A DNA stretch of 64,000 nt, taken from assembly GCA_036559745.1 (NCBI GenBank), contig DATBSO010000043.1:1833-65832 (forward strand). Reading direction: 5' to 3'. Below, piece after piece: positions 31,297 to 37,081 of this stretch (positions are counted from its first letter, which is position 1; each line of letters begins with the position of its first letter). This DNA comes from Gemmatimonadales bacterium. Lineage in GTDB: Bacteria; Gemmatimonadota; Gemmatimonadetes; Gemmatimonadales; GWC2-71-9. A model generated the notes under the pieces. That model was not told the DNA's origin. It worked only from the letters and a program-made list of their open reading frames with translations, and did no database searches. The position numbers and the translations under genes are program-made.

Positions 31297-31338
31297 GCGG
31301 CGCCCACAACCCATACCCGCCTCCCCGCGAAGGCGTTG

Positions 31339-33669
31339 ATGTCTGATGAACTGGTGATGCGAGTCCCCACTCCAGACAGGAAGACGCCGCAACGGGATCT
31401 CCTCGATCTCGTGGCGCGGGCCACCCAGGACCTGATCTGGGACTGGGATCTCCCTGGACAGCGGGTGAGCTGGGCCGGCGTGACCTATCCGTTCTTCGGA
31501 TGCGAGCCCGAGGAAATCGCGAGCACCGAGGGAGACGACTATCGGTCATGGGCGGCCCGGGTCCACCCTGACGATCTCGCGGCGACGGAGGCCGCTTCCA
31601 CCATGGCGCTGCGGGGTGGCGCCGACGCGTGGGAGCATGAATACCGGTTCAGACGCGCCGACGGGACATGGGCTCGCGTGCTCGAGCGCGCGACCATCGT
31701 GCGAGACCCGAGCGGGGAACCGTTCCGGGTCGTCGGCGCGCTGCGGGACATCTCCCGGCAGCTTGAAAACGACGAAGCCAGAACCCGCCTTGCCGCGATC
31801 GTCACCCACTCCAGCGACGCGATCATCGGCAAGACGCTCGAGGGGACGGTAACCAACTGGAACGCGGCAGCGGAGCGCCTGTTCGGATATCCCGCCGCGG
31901 AGATGGTCGGCCAATCGATCTACAAGTTGATTCCCGAAGAGCTCCACCAGGCGGAGCGCGAGCTTCTCGATCAGATACGCCGCGGTGCGCGCGTCGAGAT
32001 CGCCGAGACCGAGCGCATCAGGAAAGACGGCAGCCGCATCTACGTCAACATCAGCGTCTCGCCGATTTGGGATAGCTCGGGTCGACTGGTCGGCGCGTCG
32101 TCCATCAAGCGCGATGTAACGGCCAAGAAGCAGGCCCAGGAGGAGCTCCGGCGTCGCGAGGAGCGTTACCGGGCCCTTGTCACCGCGACATCCTCGCTGG
32201 TGTGGGAGGCCGATCCGGAGGGAAGATTCCTGGCGCCTCAGCGTGCGTGGGAGGAGTACACCGGGCAGTCGTGGACCGAACAGTGCACCTTCGGGTGGCT
32301 CCAGGCATTCCATCCCGACGACCGCGGCCCGGTAGGAGCCTCCTGGGCCGCCGCCTGTGATGCCGGGAGCACGTTCGAGTCGCGCGGGCTCATCTGGAGT
32401 GCTGCACGGCGGGCCTATCGTCATGTTCTGATCCGGGCCGTTCCGATCCTCGACGCCGAAAACCATGTCCGGGAATGGATCGGCACGCTCACGGACATCG
32501 AAGACCACTGGCTTACCGAGGAGCGCCTGCGGCAGGCTGAGCGCATGGAGGTCGTCGGACGCCTCGCCGGCGGGATCGCCCACGAAGTGAACAACCAGAT
32601 GACGGTCGTCCTCGGCGCTGCGGGCTTTCTGGTCCCCGAGGTGCACAGTGATCGCGCGCGCGAAGACGTCGAGTCCATCCGGCGCGCCGCCCAGCGAACG
32701 GCCACCATTACCCGGCAGCTGCTTGCGTACAGCAGGCGGCAGATGCTCCAGCCGCAGCTCGTCGATCTCAATGCGGTCACCGCGAGCCTCCAGCCGATGC
32801 TCCAGCGAGCGCTGAGCGAGACGGTGACGCTCACCCTCGAGCTCGCTCCCGGCCTGGATCGGGTCAATGCGGACCCTGGGCAACTCGAGATGGTCCTTCT
32901 CAATCTCGTGCTCAACGCCCGTGATGCGATGCCGAACGGCGGCGCAGTATGGATCGGGACGTCCACTGCCCAAGTCGATGCGGAATTTGCGGAGTCACAA
33001 GCGTACGACGACGCCGAGCCTGGCACGTATGCGATGTTGACCGTCAGCGATACCGGAGAAGGGATGCCGCCCGAGACGCTCCGCCACGTCTTCGAGCCCT
33101 TCTTCACGACGAAGGATGTCGGGGAAGGCACCGGGTTGGGCCTGGCGACGGTGTACGGAATCGTCAGGCAGAGCGGCGGTTTCATCTCCGTCGCGAGTCA
33201 GCCGGGGCACGGCACCACGTTCCGGATCTATCTCCCGCTGGCCGACACGGCGGCGGTCGCCAATCCCGTGCCCGAGCCCCCGCCTGTAGAAGGTGGCCAC
33301 GAGACGATTCTGGTGGTGGAGGACGAGACGAATGTGCGGGCCTTTCTCGCCCGCGCGCTTCGTGAGTTCGGGTACACGGTGATCGAGGCGGCGGATGGCG
33401 CAGAAGGACTCGATTGCGTCGCCGCTCGCGCCGGTCGCGTCGACCTGATCATCACGGACATCGTCATGCCGGGCGTCGGAGGGCGAGAGTTTGCCGAGCA
33501 GGTGTTGAGCCGTTATCCCTCGGTCCGGGTGCTGCTCATTTCCGGCTACCCGGGCCGCCAGGAGGCCGAGGAAGGTCGCGACCCAGAAGACGGCGTGGAG
33601 TTTCTGCAGAAACCTGTGGCGCCGATGGACCTGGGCCGAAAGGTCCGGGAGATGCTGGACCCGAAATAG
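31339..33669 (+). CDS. PAS-domain hybrid sensor histidine kinase with C-terminal receiver
   Basis: Three PAS-like modules (for example DAIIGKTLEGTVTNWNAAAERLFGY) and the H-box GGIAHEVNNQMTVV. The HATPase G-boxes are DTGEGMPP and GTGLGLATVYGIV. The REC domain shows ILVVEDE ... DLIITDIVMPG ... KP. Confidence 0.9.
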   Translation: MSDELVMRVPTPDRKTPQRDLLDLVARATQDLIWDWDLPGQRVSWAGVTYPFFGCEPEEIASTEGDDYRSWAARVHPDDLAATEAASTMALRGGADAWEHEYRFRRADGTWARVLERATIVRDPSGEPFRVVGALRDISRQLENDEARTRLAAIVTHSSDAIIGKTLEGTVTNWNAAAERLFGYPAAEMVGQSIYKLIPEELHQAERELLDQIRRGARVEIAETERIRKDGSRIYVNISVSPIWDSSGRLVGASSIKRDVTAKKQAQEELRRREERYRALVTATSSLVWEADPEGRFLAPQRAWEEYTGQSWTEQCTFGWLQAFHPDDRGPVGASWAAACDAGSTFESRGLIWSAARRAYRHVLIRAVPILDAENHVREWIGTLTDIEDHWLTEERLRQAERMEVVGRLAGGIAHEVNNQMTVVLGAAGFLVPEVHSDRAREDVESIRRAAQRTATITRQLLAYSRRQMLQPQLVDLNAVTASLQPMLQRALSETVTLTLELAPGLDRVNADPGQLEMVLLNLVLNARDAMPNGGAVWIGTSTAQVDAEFAESQAYDDAEPGTYAMLTVSDTGEGMPPETLRHVFEPFFTTKDVGEGTGLGLATVYGIVRQSGGFISVASQPGHGTTFRIYLPLADTAAVANPVPEPPPVEGGHETILVVEDETNVRAFLARALREFGYTVIEAADGAEGLDCVAARAGRVDLIITDIVMPGVGGREFAEQVLSRYPSVRVLLISGYPGRQEAEEGRDPEDGVEFLQKPVAPMDLGRKVREMLDPK

Positions 33670-33684
33670 GCGCTATGTTCCAAT

Positions 33685-33700
33685 CGAGCCTTCCGGCTCG
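33685..33700 (+). terminator. short hairpin CGAGCC-TTCC-GGCTCG followed by TTCTCCATTC (weak intrinsic-terminator candidate)
   Basis: Read directly, 16 nt after the kinase stop. The stem is only 6 bp and the T-tract is poor. Confidence 0.25.
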
Positions 33701-33732
33701 TTCTCCATTCATCCCGGTGTTGAGAAGAGATC

Positions 33733-35904
33733 ATGCGGCAGACGAGTGACGCCCCACCGCGTCCCAGGCTCGCCTACCGGGTCGGCGTCACGGGCCATCG
33801 CACCCTGTCGGCGGCCATCCGGCGTGACCTGCACGAGGGTATTGCCGCGCTTCTCGAGCACCTGCGCGACACCGTGTTGGACATCCGGAAGCAAAACGCC
33901 GCGGTCTACTCCACCGACCCCGCGTCCCTCGTTCTGGTTTCGCCGCTCGCGCGCGGCGCGGACCGGCTCGTTGCCCGGCGGGCCACCGCGCTCGGCTTCG
34001 AGCTCGATGTTCCCACCCCGTACGACCTGACCGAGACCGACCCCCGCATAGCCGATCCCGAGACCCCGGCCGGAAAGCTCTACCGGTCGGCCCGCGCGCG
34101 CTTCGTGCTCGACGGTCTGCACGGCGACGTCCAATCGTATGTCGAGGTCGGGCGTCGCGTGGTCTGGAACTCCGACCTTCTCATCGCCATCTGGGACGGG
34201 CGACCCGCCGCCGGACCGGGAGGAACGGCGGAGATCGTACGGCTCGCGCGTGAGCACGATGTCCCCGTCGTTCACTTTCACACCGAAAGAGTCGGGACGA
34301 TCACGCTGTACGCCGGGCCCGATCCGGTCGAGGCGTCCAGCGTCGAGGAGCTGTTTCCCAGAATCACGCGGCTGCTCGATCTCGCCCTGGTACCACCTGG
34401 CTCGGAGGACGGCGCCGGCGGTCATCGGGCCTCCAACCTCCTCCACAAGTACTTCGAGGAGACCCCGCCGTGGCTGGTGACGCGTCTCCTGGTGGGCAAG
34501 ACGTACGCGACCGTGACCGGTCTCCTCGGCCTTCCGGCGAGGATCGCTTTCCCCTCGCTGCCCCGGCACTGCGTGGAGGCCAGCCGACGAGCGTGGCGGG
34601 AAGATTGGTCGAAGGCGGACGTGCCGTCGTGGCTCACCAACCAGGTCGAAGACAGGCTGCTCGGGCACTTCGCCTGGGCGAATCATCTCTCGATCCTGTA
34701 TGCGATCCGCTATCGGTCGGTGTTCTTCTGGATCTACTGCCTGGCCGTGCTCGCGGTCGGTTCGGCTGTCGCCGGGCATCTGCACGAGGTGCGTGCAGGC
34801 AAGGTTCGAGCGGCCTGGATGGCCGCCAGATGCGAAGCCGGCCAGGCGAACGCGGGGACGCATGAATGCAATGTTCTCGGGGAGCGCCTCCAGACCGAAA
34901 AACGTGCAGCCCGCGGGTGGAGCGGATGGGAGTTCGCCCTGCTTGCCATCGTGCTCGTGCTGTTCCTCAGAGGAAGACTGGGGAAATACCACGAGAAGTG
35001 GGTCGACTACCGCTCGCTGGCGGAGAGGATCCGGCATCTGACCTTTCTCATGCCGCTCGGCAGTACGTCGCCCGCGATCCGGGTCCCGGTGCCGGCGCAG
35101 CACGCGGATCCCAGCTCCACATGGCTCAATTGGCTCTTCCGGGCCATCGTGCGCCAGGCCGGTCTGTTCGACGCCAGGGTGGATCCGACATACCTCGCGC
35201 ACTGCCGGTCGCTGCTCGTGGACGACGTCGTGCGCGGCCAGGCGGGCTACCACGAGCGTATCAGCCTGCGATTGAGTGCGGTGCATCGCCGTCTGCATCG
35301 CTTCACGATCCTGCTCTTCAGCGTGGCCTTTCTCGTCTCCCTCCTGCACTACTGGGGCATCCACTGGACGAAGAATGCGCAGCTCTCGTTCGCGCTCGCG
35401 GTGCTCCTTCCCGCTATCGCCGCCGCCGTTCACGGATTTCTGAGCCAGGGAGATTTCGAGAACGTTGCGCTGCGGGCGGAGAGCGCCCACCGCCAGTTGA
35501 CCCGGTTGGGCGACGAGGTGAGCGCGCTCTATCTCACCACGCCGTCCCAGCGACGGGAAATGGCGCGGGCCGAGCGCCGCGAGCGACTCGCGGCGCTCGA
35601 CGGCGATGCGCTTCGCGAGCGTGCGGTGCGGGTGGTAGAGGATCGTCTCGATGCCGAATCCGAGCCGGCGCTCGGGATCGCGGTGCCCGACCTCGAGCAG
35701 CGGCAGCTCGAGTGGCGGGAGACCGTCGCGCGTCTCGGCGATCGGGAGCTGCGCGACCTGCTCGACCGGGGCCCGCTCGCCGAATTTCCCGCGGCGGCGA
35801 GCGCGGAGCTGGGACGGTACGCGCGCCATGCCGCCGATATCATGGGCGACGAGCTCATCGGTTGGCGGGCGGATTCCCAGGTGCGGCCGCTGGTGCTGGC
35901 GTGA
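33733..35904 (+). CDS. SLOG-like (DprA/LOG/YpsA-type) nucleotide-binding domain fused to two 2-TM SLATT-like membrane modules and a charged helical tail
   Basis: The N-terminal ~190 aa has YRVGVTGHR, SPLARGADRLVARRA (compare DprA GxARGID) and LLIAIWDG..AGPGGTAEIV (compare LOG PGGxGTxxE). Four TM helices are at about aa 330-348, 398-412, 524-541 and 551-570. Each pair is followed by a conserved amphipathic helix (KWVDYRSLAERIRHL; FENVALRAESAHRQL). SD-like GAGAAGAG precedes the ATG. The domain call rests on motifs only, with no search run. Confidence 0.6.
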   Translation: MRQTSDAPPRPRLAYRVGVTGHRTLSAAIRRDLHEGIAALLEHLRDTVLDIRKQNAAVYSTDPASLVLVSPLARGADRLVARRATALGFELDVPTPYDLTETDPRIADPETPAGKLYRSARARFVLDGLHGDVQSYVEVGRRVVWNSDLLIAIWDGRPAAGPGGTAEIVRLAREHDVPVVHFHTERVGTITLYAGPDPVEASSVEELFPRITRLLDLALVPPGSEDGAGGHRASNLLHKYFEETPPWLVTRLLVGKTYATVTGLLGLPARIAFPSLPRHCVEASRRAWREDWSKADVPSWLTNQVEDRLLGHFAWANHLSILYAIRYRSVFFWIYCLAVLAVGSAVAGHLHEVRAGKVRAAWMAARCEAGQANAGTHECNVLGERLQTEKRAARGWSGWEFALLAIVLVLFLRGRLGKYHEKWVDYRSLAERIRHLTFLMPLGSTSPAIRVPVPAQHADPSSTWLNWLFRAIVRQAGLFDARVDPTYLAHCRSLLVDDVVRGQAGYHERISLRLSAVHRRLHRFTILLFSVAFLVSLLHYWGIHWTKNAQLSFALAVLLPAIAAAVHGFLSQGDFENVALRAESAHRQLTRLGDEVSALYLTTPSQRREMARAERRERLAALDGDALRERAVRVVEDRLDAESEPALGIAVPDLEQRQLEWRETVARLGDRELRDLLDRGPLAEFPAAASAELGRYARHAADIMGDELIGWRADSQVRPLVLA

Positions 35905-37081
35905 GGGCGCCGCCCCGTCCGCGGCCCCCTTCCAGGTTGGGCAGCAGGCCGGTGAGGAGCCCGACGGCGGGCAGGTAGGAACAGAGCCGATAGACGAAGG
36001 CGATATCGGTGTGGTCGGCCAGCCGGCCGAGCACGGCGGCGCCGATGCCGGCGACGCCGAAGGCGAATCCGAAAAAGAGTCCGGAGATGAGTCCGACATT
36101 CCCCGGGACCAGCTCCTGGGCGTACACCAGGATCGCCGAGAAGGCCGACGCCAGTATCACGCCGATGATCACGCTCAACACCCCGGTCCAGAAGAGATTG
36201 ACGTAGGGCAGCGCCAGCGTGAAAGGCAGCACGCCCAGGATCGAGCACCAGATGACGTACTTGCGGCCGATGCGGTCACCCACTGGCCCACCGATGATGG
36301 TGCCCGCCGCGACCGCGCCGAGGAACGCGAACAGATACAGCTGCGCGCTCTGCACGGACACACCGAACTTGTGGATCAGGTAGAAGGTGTAGTAGCTCGT
36401 CAGGCTCGAGAGATAGATGTACTTCGAGAAAATGAGCGCGATCAGCACGGCGAGCGCCATGCGCACCTGTCCAGGCGTCAACCCGTGTCCCGCCTCCGCC
36501 CTCGCCCTCGAGGCGGCCGCGGCCTGATGCCGCCGGTACCAACGCCCCACCCGCCAGAGAATGACACTGCCGACCACGCCGATCACCGCGAACCATGCGA
36601 TGCTCTGCTGGCCGCGCGGCACGACGATGAAAGCCGCGAGCAACGGGCCGATCGCCGAGCCCGCGTTTCCGCCCACCTGAAAGAGCGACTGCGCCATACC
36701 GTGCCGCCCGCCCGACGCCATGCGCGCCACCCGTGACGACTCGGGGTGAAAGACCGACGACCCCAGCCCCACCAGCCCCGCGGAGACCAGGAGCGCCGGA
36801 AAGCTCCCCGCCGACGACAGGACAAGAAGCCCGAGCACGCTGAATCCCATGCCTGCGGCGAGGGAATAGGGTTGCGGCCGGCGGTCGGTGTAGAGCCCGA
36901 CAACCGGCTGCAGGAGCGACGCGGTGGCCTGGAAGGTGAGCGTGATGAGGCCGATCTGCCCGAACGACAAGCCGTAGTTCTGCTTGAGCGTCGGGTAGAT
37001 CGCGGGCAGCAGCGACTGCATCGTGTCGTTCAGGAGATGACAGAACGCGATCGCGCCGAGGATTCTGAACGTCGTATCCAT
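35855..37081 (-). CDS. MFS transporter (Fsr/fosmidomycin-resistance-like)
   Basis: N-terminus MDTTFRILGAIAFCHLLNDTMQSLLPAIYPTLKQNYGLSFGQIGLITLTF and about 12 TM segments. The 3' end overlaps the convergent SLOG-SLATT gene by 50 nt. Confidence 0.85.
   Translation of the reverse strand: MDTTFRILGAIAFCHLLNDTMQSLLPAIYPTLKQNYGLSFGQIGLITLTFQATASLLQPVVGLYTDRRPQPYSLAAGMGFSVLGLLVLSSAGSFPALLVSAGLVGLGSSVFHPESSRVARMASGGRHGMAQSLFQVGGNAGSAIGPLLAAFIVVPRGQQSIAWFAVIGVVGSVILWRVGRWYRRHQAAAASRARAEAGHGLTPGQVRMALAVLIALIFSKYIYLSSLTSYYTFYLIHKFGVSVQSAQLYLFAFLGAVAAGTIIGGPVGDRIGRKYVIWCSILGVLPFTLALPYVNLFWTGVLSVIIGVILASAFSAILVYAQELVPGNVGLISGLFFGFAFGVAGIGAAVLGRLADHTDIAFVYRLCSYLPAVGLLTGLLPNLEGGRGRGGALTPAPAAAPGNPPANR

Follow-up and report, generated by a model that had tools for sequence, protein, structure and literature searches.

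A SLOG protein with tandem SLATT membrane modules from Gemmatimonadales is a TIR-unlinked member of a TIR-associated family of predicted effectors

The 64-kb stretch of Gemmatimonadales DNA analysed here (contig DATBSO010000043.1; hereafter the window) carries on its forward strand a gene for a 723-aa protein that joins an N-terminal SLOG-fold domain to two SLATT-type membrane modules, each built on a hairpin of two transmembrane (TM) helices, and to a C-terminal helical part (Table 1). Proteins of this architecture form a TIR-associated effector family, and the window gene is a new member of it that is not linked to a TIR gene and carries lineage-specific insertions. This is a well-supported annotation and not a new kind of system, since the architecture is common, was predicted earlier and is tied to TIR signalling for the family. 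The window protein is probably still a ligand-gated SLOG-SLATT membrane effector, most likely triggered in trans.

The open reading frame (ORF) begins with ATG, and an identical protein is recorded as a ‘hypothetical protein’ of a Gemmatimonadales metagenome-assembled genome (MAG). A homologue search returned 139 homologues, with identical domain order in all 120 among the matches listed; 118 homologues make up the alignment behind both the conservation columns and the AlphaFold2 model of the protein (pLDDT 94.1, pTM 0.91). The order of parts is common to all 118: N-domain, TM hairpin 1 with a WHERWxxYRxLAExxR helix, linker, QxxYH helix, TM hairpin 2 and, last, the C-terminal helix, in which a Trp is conserved. 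Conservation is complete or at least 90% at G18, T20, G21, R23, S70, L72, A73, G75, D77, D148, W154, D155, G161, G163, G164 and T165 in the SLOG part, and E400, R427, E431, R434, Q503 and W711 in the membrane and C-terminal parts. An earlier reading of the DNA alone (the original prediction) had quoted the ORF and a set of motifs, each of which was found at its expected place in the 723-aa product; these motifs fall on the conserved columns and are therefore not chance patterns.

In the AlphaFold2 model, strands alternate with helices over aa 14–201, and the specific matches found by Foldseek in the PDB all belong to the SLOG superfamily (YpsA, DprA, ShosA and Moco carrier protein; probability 1.00). 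The best is YpsA (2nx2; probability 1.00, target-normalised TM-score 0.68, 191 columns), the others being DprA in several structures, ShosA (DprA-like) and the Moco carrier protein 2iz6 (LOG-like). TRPM channels, whose N-terminal domain is related to SLOG, are matched at low probability only, and ThsA was not found among the top 50. Two loops are characteristic, with named residues that are at least 90% conserved: a Gly-rich loop after strand 1 (G18-x-T20-G21-x-R23) and a GG-T loop (G161-x-G163-G164-T165-x-E167), whose Glu follows at a distance one residue less than that of the LOG motif. The modelled fold is thus that of a SLOG domain, as originally proposed from motifs and now borne out by Foldseek on the pLDDT-94 model, and within the superfamily it lies nearest to YpsA and DprA. 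Besides giving the best structural matches, YpsA and DprA have the post-strand-1 Gly-rich loop and the GG-T loop in common with the N-domain, but they are soluble proteins with roles in cell division or DNA uptake, whereas the window protein is predicted to be membrane-bound; their identity to the N-domain is 12–17%, and the Pfam YpsA and DprA thresholds are not reached. Among 48 relatives, there were only stray matches of this kind, in one member each (DprA, 3e-4; YAcAr, 0.069; nucleoside deoxyribosyltransferase, 0.086). The YpsA-like SLOG clade has been tied to the sensing of cyclic ADP-ribose (ADPR) variants by Iyer, Burroughs and Aravind.

A hydropathy scan gives four TM-like segments (aa ~327–350, 396–414, 522–543 and 549–572), which agree with the two hairpins of the original prediction and sit, as the pairs 327–350/396–414 and 522–543/549–572, within long helices of the model. 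Module 1 holds the conserved residues E400, R427, E431 and R434; in module 2, the QxxYH helix holds Q503 and H507, and the loop between TM3 and TM4 has five residues. The whole protein matches the NCBIfam model SLATT_1 over two stretches, one of them aa 499–602 (E 1.1e-8; 35.1 bits, below the cut-off of 41). When the modules are scanned alone, module 1 (aa 274–453) matches SLATT_1 (E 5.6e-5) and SLATT_3 (E 0.056), and module 2 (aa 461–612) matches SLATT_1 (E 9.1e-6) and SLATT_4 (E 4e-4); Pfam DUF4231 matches the window protein at aa 399–438 (E 0.018). Four relatives (P0016, P0067, P0074 and P0115) pass Pfam gathering thresholds, for DUF4231 and/or SLATT_3 in module 1 and for SLATT_1 in module 2, while in P0103 SLATT_1 alone passes (SLATT_3, 24.6 bits vs a cut-off of 26.3); DUF4231 is matched in 35 of 48 family members. 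With each hairpin matching SLATT profiles and relatives passing Pfam thresholds, the proposal of tandem SLATT-like two-TM modules is upheld. The profiles of the two modules align by hhalign over 111 columns in equivalent register, a weak match (E 0.0088, probability 4.6%), and a common origin of the modules is plausible on this sequence comparison. The SLOG domain, the linker between the modules and the C-terminus are predicted to be cytoplasmic, and a Cys-bearing loop between TM1 and TM2 (see below) and the TM3–TM4 loop periplasmic.

SLOG and SLATT are reportedly defined in a 2015 NAR paper by Burroughs and colleagues. The family name itself, ‘SMODS- and SLOG-associating 2TM’, as used in Pfam and NCBIfam, records the prediction of the Burroughs/Aravind group, whose later papers describe SLATT as a predicted pore-forming or permeability effector responsive to nucleotides or ADPR derivatives.

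A profile search of 1.84 billion cluster representatives (50%-identity clusters) returned 16,203 proteins at E≤1e-3, of which 5,600 reach E≤1e-30; the top 150 matches have lengths of 554–816 aa, nearly all of them aligned from one end to the other. When GTDB species were scanned with one genome each, relatives turned up in at least 537 genomes. The relatives come mostly from Acidobacteriota, Gemmatimonadota, Alphaproteobacteria, Dadabacteria, Nitrospirales and others. The original prediction had called a duplicated SLATT module on one chain unusual; given the 5,600 representatives found at E≤1e-30 and the presence of relatives in at least 537 species genomes, tandem SLATT is instead the norm, and the defining architecture, of a very large family. 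SLOG-plus-SLATT proteins rank among the largest predicted classes of nucleotide-gated membrane effectors, with thousands of 50%-identity clusters from Acidobacteriota, Gemmatimonadota, Alphaproteobacteria, Nitrospirota and further phyla.

A TIR-domain gene adjoins the family gene in both of the first two distant relatives examined. The neighbour survey covered 80 genome loci and one more (81 in all), in which ORFs were called, neighbours clustered and cluster representatives checked with Pfam. Recurrent clusters were TIR_2 with DUF4189, TIR_2 with TPR, and SIR2_2 with TIR_2, and a further one combined a weak TIR_2 match (E 0.006, under threshold) with FGE-sulfatase; CD-NTase/SMODS was absent from the annotated recurrent clusters. 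With a TIR hidden Markov model (HMM) built from the Pfam-annotated TIR regions of the surveyed loci and run on all of them, a TIR ORF was found within 6 kb of the gene in 52 of the 81 loci, and within ~1.5 kb in 42. The other loci comprise 15 with full flanks and no TIR and 14 without TIR whose flanks are incomplete. As an internal control, the density of TIR ORFs falls with distance from 14.3 per 100 kb (0–2 kb) through 3.8 (2–4 kb), 2.5 (4–6 kb) and 0.46 (6–8 kb) to 0 (8–10 kb), an enrichment of ~30-fold within 2 kb of the gene relative to 6–10 kb. The TIR-less loci are scattered over the family tree (15 of the 67 loci with full flanks or TIR); one has a STAND NTPase bearing a TIR-like DUF4062, several encode a TrkA_N+RyR protein, and the remainder resemble housekeeping loci.

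The family is therefore TIR-associated, and the survey is a quantitative basis for treating it as a Thoeris-type effector. The trigger, which the original prediction had left unknown, can be narrowed for the family to what its usual neighbour, a TIR-domain protein, would supply: by analogy with Thoeris, this neighbour implies an NAD+-derived, ADPR-type signal. The originally proposed logic of a nucleotide-triggered membrane effector acting by abortive infection fits the strong genomic association with TIR.

The TIR partners themselves are varied in their extra, C-terminal domains (L009:5559-6923, L071:6820-8727, L058:12028-14061, L008:9949-11334 and L035:12099-15182), which include DUF4189, TPR, FGE-sulfatase and SIR2_2, the last followed by an nSTAND1 NTPase gene, one locus having the DUF4062 STAND NTPase in place of such a partner; this variety suggests that many different infection sensors feed one effector type. 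A TrkA_N (NAD-binding) protein of ~655–685 aa, in some copies with RyR, is encoded by the next gene downstream of SLOG-SLATT at loci of Acidobacteriaceae and of some Alphaproteobacteria (L023:11807-13774, L048:11786-13837, L049:11786-13837, L078:11791-13761 and L087:11791-13794); a TIR gene follows it in some and not in others. This protein may be an extra component or an alternative partner.

The window gene lies in a different setting. Its neighbours encode MgtC, gamma-glutamyltranspeptidase (GGT), an amidohydrolase, an MFS transporter, a peptidase S15, an aldehyde dehydrogenase, DHODH and a uricase, and relatives of 60–73% identity share a syntenic core with GGT/MgtC upstream and MFS plus peptidase S15 downstream. 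This housekeeping synteny, free of TIR and defence genes, was seen in all five surveyed loci of at least 60% identity. The original prediction had named homologues always embedded in housekeeping operons as a finding that would speak against it; such embedding is the rule in this close clade and not in the wider family. In a neighbour-joining tree the window clade is nested in Gemmatimonadota relatives, most of them TIR-adjacent; the absence of TIR linkage is therefore a derived state, reached by loss in the Gemmatimonadales subclade to which the window copy belongs. Two Gemmatimonadota genomes hold a pair of paralogues of the family, one TIR-adjacent and the other TIR-less. The orphan-clade protein P0008 (L089) and the TIR-adjacent P0024 (L007/L018; 33% identical) come from the same ENA assembly, ERZ25039539, which for the second contig is MAG MFD05442.bin.2.33, so that a single genome can hold both kinds of paralogue. 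MAG palsa_1248 also combines a TIR-adjacent with a TIR-less copy (L030 and L017).

The favoured model, drawn by analogy with characterised Thoeris systems, can be set out as follows. The protein would be an inner-membrane protein of three parts, a cytoplasmic SLOG ligand-binding domain, two SLATT two-helix modules and a C-terminal helix. Upon infection or stress, a TIR enzyme would turn NAD+ into an ADPR-derived signal, which the SLOG domain would bind; binding would alter the packing or oligomerisation of the four TM helices, leaving the membrane permeable, with growth stop or cell death (abortive infection) as the outcome. For the window copy, the signal would be made elsewhere in the genome (activation in trans), or the protein has another role. 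Because the residues of its predicted ligand site and its SLATT signature residues are intact, the window copy is likely to have remained a ligand-gated membrane effector. As a vertically inherited, TIR-unlinked subclade with intact signature residues, the Gemmatimonadales proteins offer a natural test of action in trans against a non-immune role.

Several observations weigh against this model. The window protein stays under the curated cut-off of every SLATT model, and neither it nor its N-domain alone reaches any Pfam or NCBIfam SLOG model. PADLOC gave no match for it, and scans (v2) of the protein, four relatives and the TIR partners returned no effector model for the family, which is without a PADLOC model; the partners gave generic TIR matches. 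To our knowledge, no ligand, pore, toxicity or defence phenotype has been demonstrated for any family member to date. The genomic setting is housekeeping and syntenic and not a defence island. As the original prediction had already held, no nucleotide-generating gene is near: the TIR HMM (E≤1) detected a TIR ORF neither in the 64-kb window nor at the loci of four close relatives, no SMODS/CD-NTase Pfam label was given to the called genes within ~10 kb of the window gene, and no TIR, SMODS or other signal generator was found within 8–10 kb in the four close relatives. Finally, two operons listed as ‘SLOG and 4TM’ gave no defence when tested in E. coli by Yirmiya et al. (bioRxiv 10.64898/2025.12.03.692087), and that candidate is equated with the present family by description of its architecture, not at sequence level.

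In the same preprint, ‘SLOG and 4TM’ beside TIR is one of 29 putative Thoeris configurations (Tables S1/S2); the tested operons came from Streptomyces sp. GKU 895 and Ca. Nitrospira nitrosa, and the type is unnamed. A SLOG domain and four TM helices beside a TIR gene correspond to the architecture and typical neighbourhood of the present family, from which the window gene departs in lacking an adjacent TIR and in carrying two extra insertions. The TIR-domain sequences given there for ‘4TM SLOG’ are 28–29% identical to one TIR of the surveyed loci. When a database was searched with the Nitrospira nitrosa TIR, the exact protein was not among the matches; the best relative on a usable contig (59% identity) has unrelated neighbours and no family member beside it.

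Among characterised systems, ThsA of type I Thoeris (SIR2-SLOG) has the sensor logic proposed here: its SLOG domain binds 3'cADPR and thereby turns on SIR2, a SLOG receptor for a TIR-made cyclic ADPR isomer driving a toxic domain, with the same class of TIR neighbour. Its output is a SIR2 NADase, whereas that of the window protein would be paired SLATT membrane modules. In type VII Thoeris, TIR-made canonical cADPR acts with the SLATT effector ThsH, and in ThsH and the 2TM-SLATT effectors of CBASS, as predicted here, a nucleotide signal is turned into cell death by a SLATT membrane module. SLATT is the only domain annotated in ThsH, whose ligand pockets are predicted between SLATT protomers; by contrast, the window protein joins a distinct SLOG sensor to two SLATT modules of different type in a single polypeptide and, unlike CBASS effectors, has no CD-NTase/SMODS label among the genes called within ~10 kb of it. 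The Macro-TM effector of type II Thoeris resembles it in fusing a binding domain for a TIR product to membrane-breaching TM helices, but senses His-ADPR through a Macro and not a SLOG domain, and its TM module is unrelated. Overall, the pairing of a ligand sensor with a toxic output domain predicted for the window effector is that of Thoeris-type systems, from which it differs in having no adjacent TIR and in lying outside any group of defence genes.

Two insertions set the window protein apart from distant relatives. The loop between TM1 and TM2 is enlarged by 45 aa containing a Cys pair, modelled as a helical hairpin extended beyond the membrane (helices 299–364 and 377–417), probably on the periplasmic side. 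This insertion is present only in P0001-4, P0008-10 and P0012, and absent from P0005-7 (69–74% identical) and all distant relatives; both Cys are kept in every sequence that has it. The other insertion, ~85 aa, lies ahead of the C-terminal helix and is found only in P0001-P0013, that is, in all relatives down to 47% identity, while in distant relatives the post-TM helix leads directly into the C-terminal helix; it has no family match in Pfam and NCBIfam scans. What the original prediction had described as an Arg/Glu-rich helical tail of ~130 aa is indeed helical, but consists of this clade insertion plus the normal C-terminal helix of the family. A PDB sequence search with the protein and the family profile gave only a weak match of the tail to GroES (8wuc, E 6e-4) and matches to designed coiled coils; these were rejected, the GroES match as spurious, because the region is all-helical in the model.

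These insertions and the fixed locus raise the possibility that the Gemmatimonadales proteins have been domesticated as housekeeping ligand-gated membrane proteins and are no longer immune effectors. Such a channel or sensor would answer to an endogenous nucleotide, an NAD metabolite or a periplasmic or redox cue received through the Cys-pair loop, and would tune permeability or ion flux. The place of the gene between MgtC/GGT and MFS/peptidase S15 in five relatives (60–100% identity), in the company of no defence genes, is what would be expected, as are two clade-specific insertions of which the C-terminal one is strongly conserved in the clade and the other keeps its Cys pair wherever the loop exists; a separate TIR-linked paralogue coexisting in one MAG would be predicted by subfunctionalisation. 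Yet the residues of the ligand site and the SLATT signature are the same as in TIR-linked relatives, with no visible change of specificity, the loop insertion is dispensable within the clade (P0005-7), and the scatter of TIR-less loci over the tree makes loss of linkage common, so that it need not mean a new role. Domestication is accordingly a minority reading, though one to be taken seriously. In a more specific and somewhat less probable form, the subclade (at least 60% identity) would be a formerly TIR-dependent effector captured into the core genome as a stand-alone ligand-gated channel while a TIR-linked paralogue persists at another place in that genome, the Cys-pair periplasmic hairpin and the ~85-aa cytoplasmic insert supplying new inputs. 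If this is true, bacteria would have recruited an immune pore effector to physiology, in loose parallel to the SLOG-containing TRPM channels of animals.

The protein could also be a membrane-anchored SLOG enzyme, akin to the LOG-type N-glycosidases, that makes or degrades a nucleotide-derived signal, with SLATT as anchor or regulator. Some SLOG clades act on N-glycosidic bonds, SLOG processing of ADPR derivatives has been proposed in the literature, the GGT-x-E loop resembles the LOG motif PGGxGTxxE and the LOG-like 2iz6 is among the fold matches. This is nevertheless improbable: the best structural neighbours, YpsA and DprA, are binding and not hydrolytic SLOG proteins, the motif spacing is unlike that of LOG (T-A-E vs T-x-x-E), and fusion to pore-type SLATT together with adjacency to a TIR signal generator suit a sensor better. 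That the gene is what is left of a former TIR-effector pair, now decaying and without a function, is very hard to sustain. The 64-kb window offers no partner gene, and the distant P0013 has substitutions at invariant SLOG positions (G75D, Y136G, W154S and G164D), but the frame is intact, full-length copies with all family-invariant residues kept occur in at least 12 relatives (60–73% identity), and the structure model is very confident.

Equally slight is the chance that the protein is the output of the PAS hybrid histidine kinase encoded upstream, in a co-oriented operon in which the kinase would control the membrane protein. The original observation of a same-strand kinase just upstream is confirmed, with a 63-nt spacer; arrangement and spacing are kept in the P0002 locus, and hybrid kinases also occur near some alphaproteobacterial relatives. 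But of the clade loci only those of P0001 and P0002 have this kinase upstream: in P0012 a truncated HATPase_c/REC gene (209 aa) was called, in P0008 a divergent LytTR two-component pair takes its place and in P0009 there is no kinase, and the effector protein has no REC or HPt domain in the Pfam scan or the model. A role as functional partner was rejected on this clade comparison. In Alphaproteobacteria, a PAS/HisKA/HATPase/REC hybrid kinase lies ~1.7 kb from the effector gene in 13 loci (e.g. L060:6351-8222), typically on the opposite strand and in some with a ComM/Mg-chelatase-like gene between; this recurrence looks like lineage synteny, but is reminiscent of the kinase beside the window gene. 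Against co-transcription in the window, the spacer holds a hairpin and T-rich tail, whose stem recurs at the P0002 locus (L004), where a single compensatory change turns A-T into G-C, and which is possibly a weak terminator separating the kinase and effector genes, as judged from its sequence. A promoter and terminator scan called nothing in the spacer, and the fold z-score was not significant.

Table 1 Features of the effector gene, its product and the adjoining genes in the window
Feature	Position in window	Strand	Position in protein (aa)	Basis or content
Complete gene	33733..35904	+		SLOG + SLATT_3/DUF4231-like module + SLATT_1-like module + C-terminal helices
SLOG-fold domain, predicted cytoplasmic ligand sensor	33760..34392	+	~10-220	Foldseek and motif conservation
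SLOG-domain motifs			17-23; 70-77; 151-156; 161-167	GxTGxR; SPLAxGxD; IAIWDG; GxGGTAE
Motif VGVTGHR			17-23	
Motif SPLARGADRLVARRA			70-84	
Motif LLIAIWDG			149-156	
Motif AGPGGTAEIV			160-169	
SLATT module 1	34627..35058	+	~299-442	Pre-TM helix, TM1 327-350, TM2 396-414, WHERWxxYRxLAExxR helix
TM1-TM2 loop insertion with Cys pair C367, C379	34783..34917	+	~351-395	45 aa; alignment and model
Motif KWVDYRSLAERIRHL			422-436	
SLATT module 2	35185..35526	+	~485-598	QxxYH helix, TM3 522-543, TM4 549-572, amphipathic helix 575-598
Motif GQAGYHERISLRL			502-514	
Motif FENVALRAESAHRQL			575-589	
Arg/Glu-rich helical insertion, ~85 aa	35539..35796	+	~603-688	Alignment; all-helical in model
Family-conserved C-terminal helix	35797..35877	+	689-715	W711 at least 90% conserved
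PAS/HisKA/HATPase/REC hybrid histidine kinase (context)	31336..33669	+		Pfam; ends 63 nt upstream of effector gene
Hairpin CGAGCC-TTCC-GGCTCG (33685-33700) and T-rich TTCTCCATT tail	33685..33709	+		63-nt spacer; read from sequence
MFS_1 transporter gene, convergent (context)	35855..37081	-		Synteny conserved within clade

Every family-invariant residue is intact in P0001-P0012. The most distant carrier of the ~85-aa insertion, P0013 (47% identical; L091:2962-4947), keeps the insertion and has, besides the SLOG substitutions given above, Q503E and W711T. Its context is also different, adjoining two unannotated genes of ~305 aa; from its sequence, P0013 may be a degenerating or re-purposed copy.

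The effector gene and the convergent MFS gene share 50 nt at their 3' ends (35855-35904). The same arrangement is found in relatives: the shared stretch has 50 nt at the loci of P0002 and P0008, 30 nt at that of P0009 and 14 nt at that of P0012. Within the clade the final ~13 residues of the effector (ADSQVRPLVLA) hardly vary, which may result from coding on both strands in the overlap. An ATG-initiated antisense ORF of 796 aa (33709..36099, reverse strand) spans the whole effector gene; it is most likely an artefact of high G+C content, since it is the product of the forward strand that has homologues, profile matches and a confident model.

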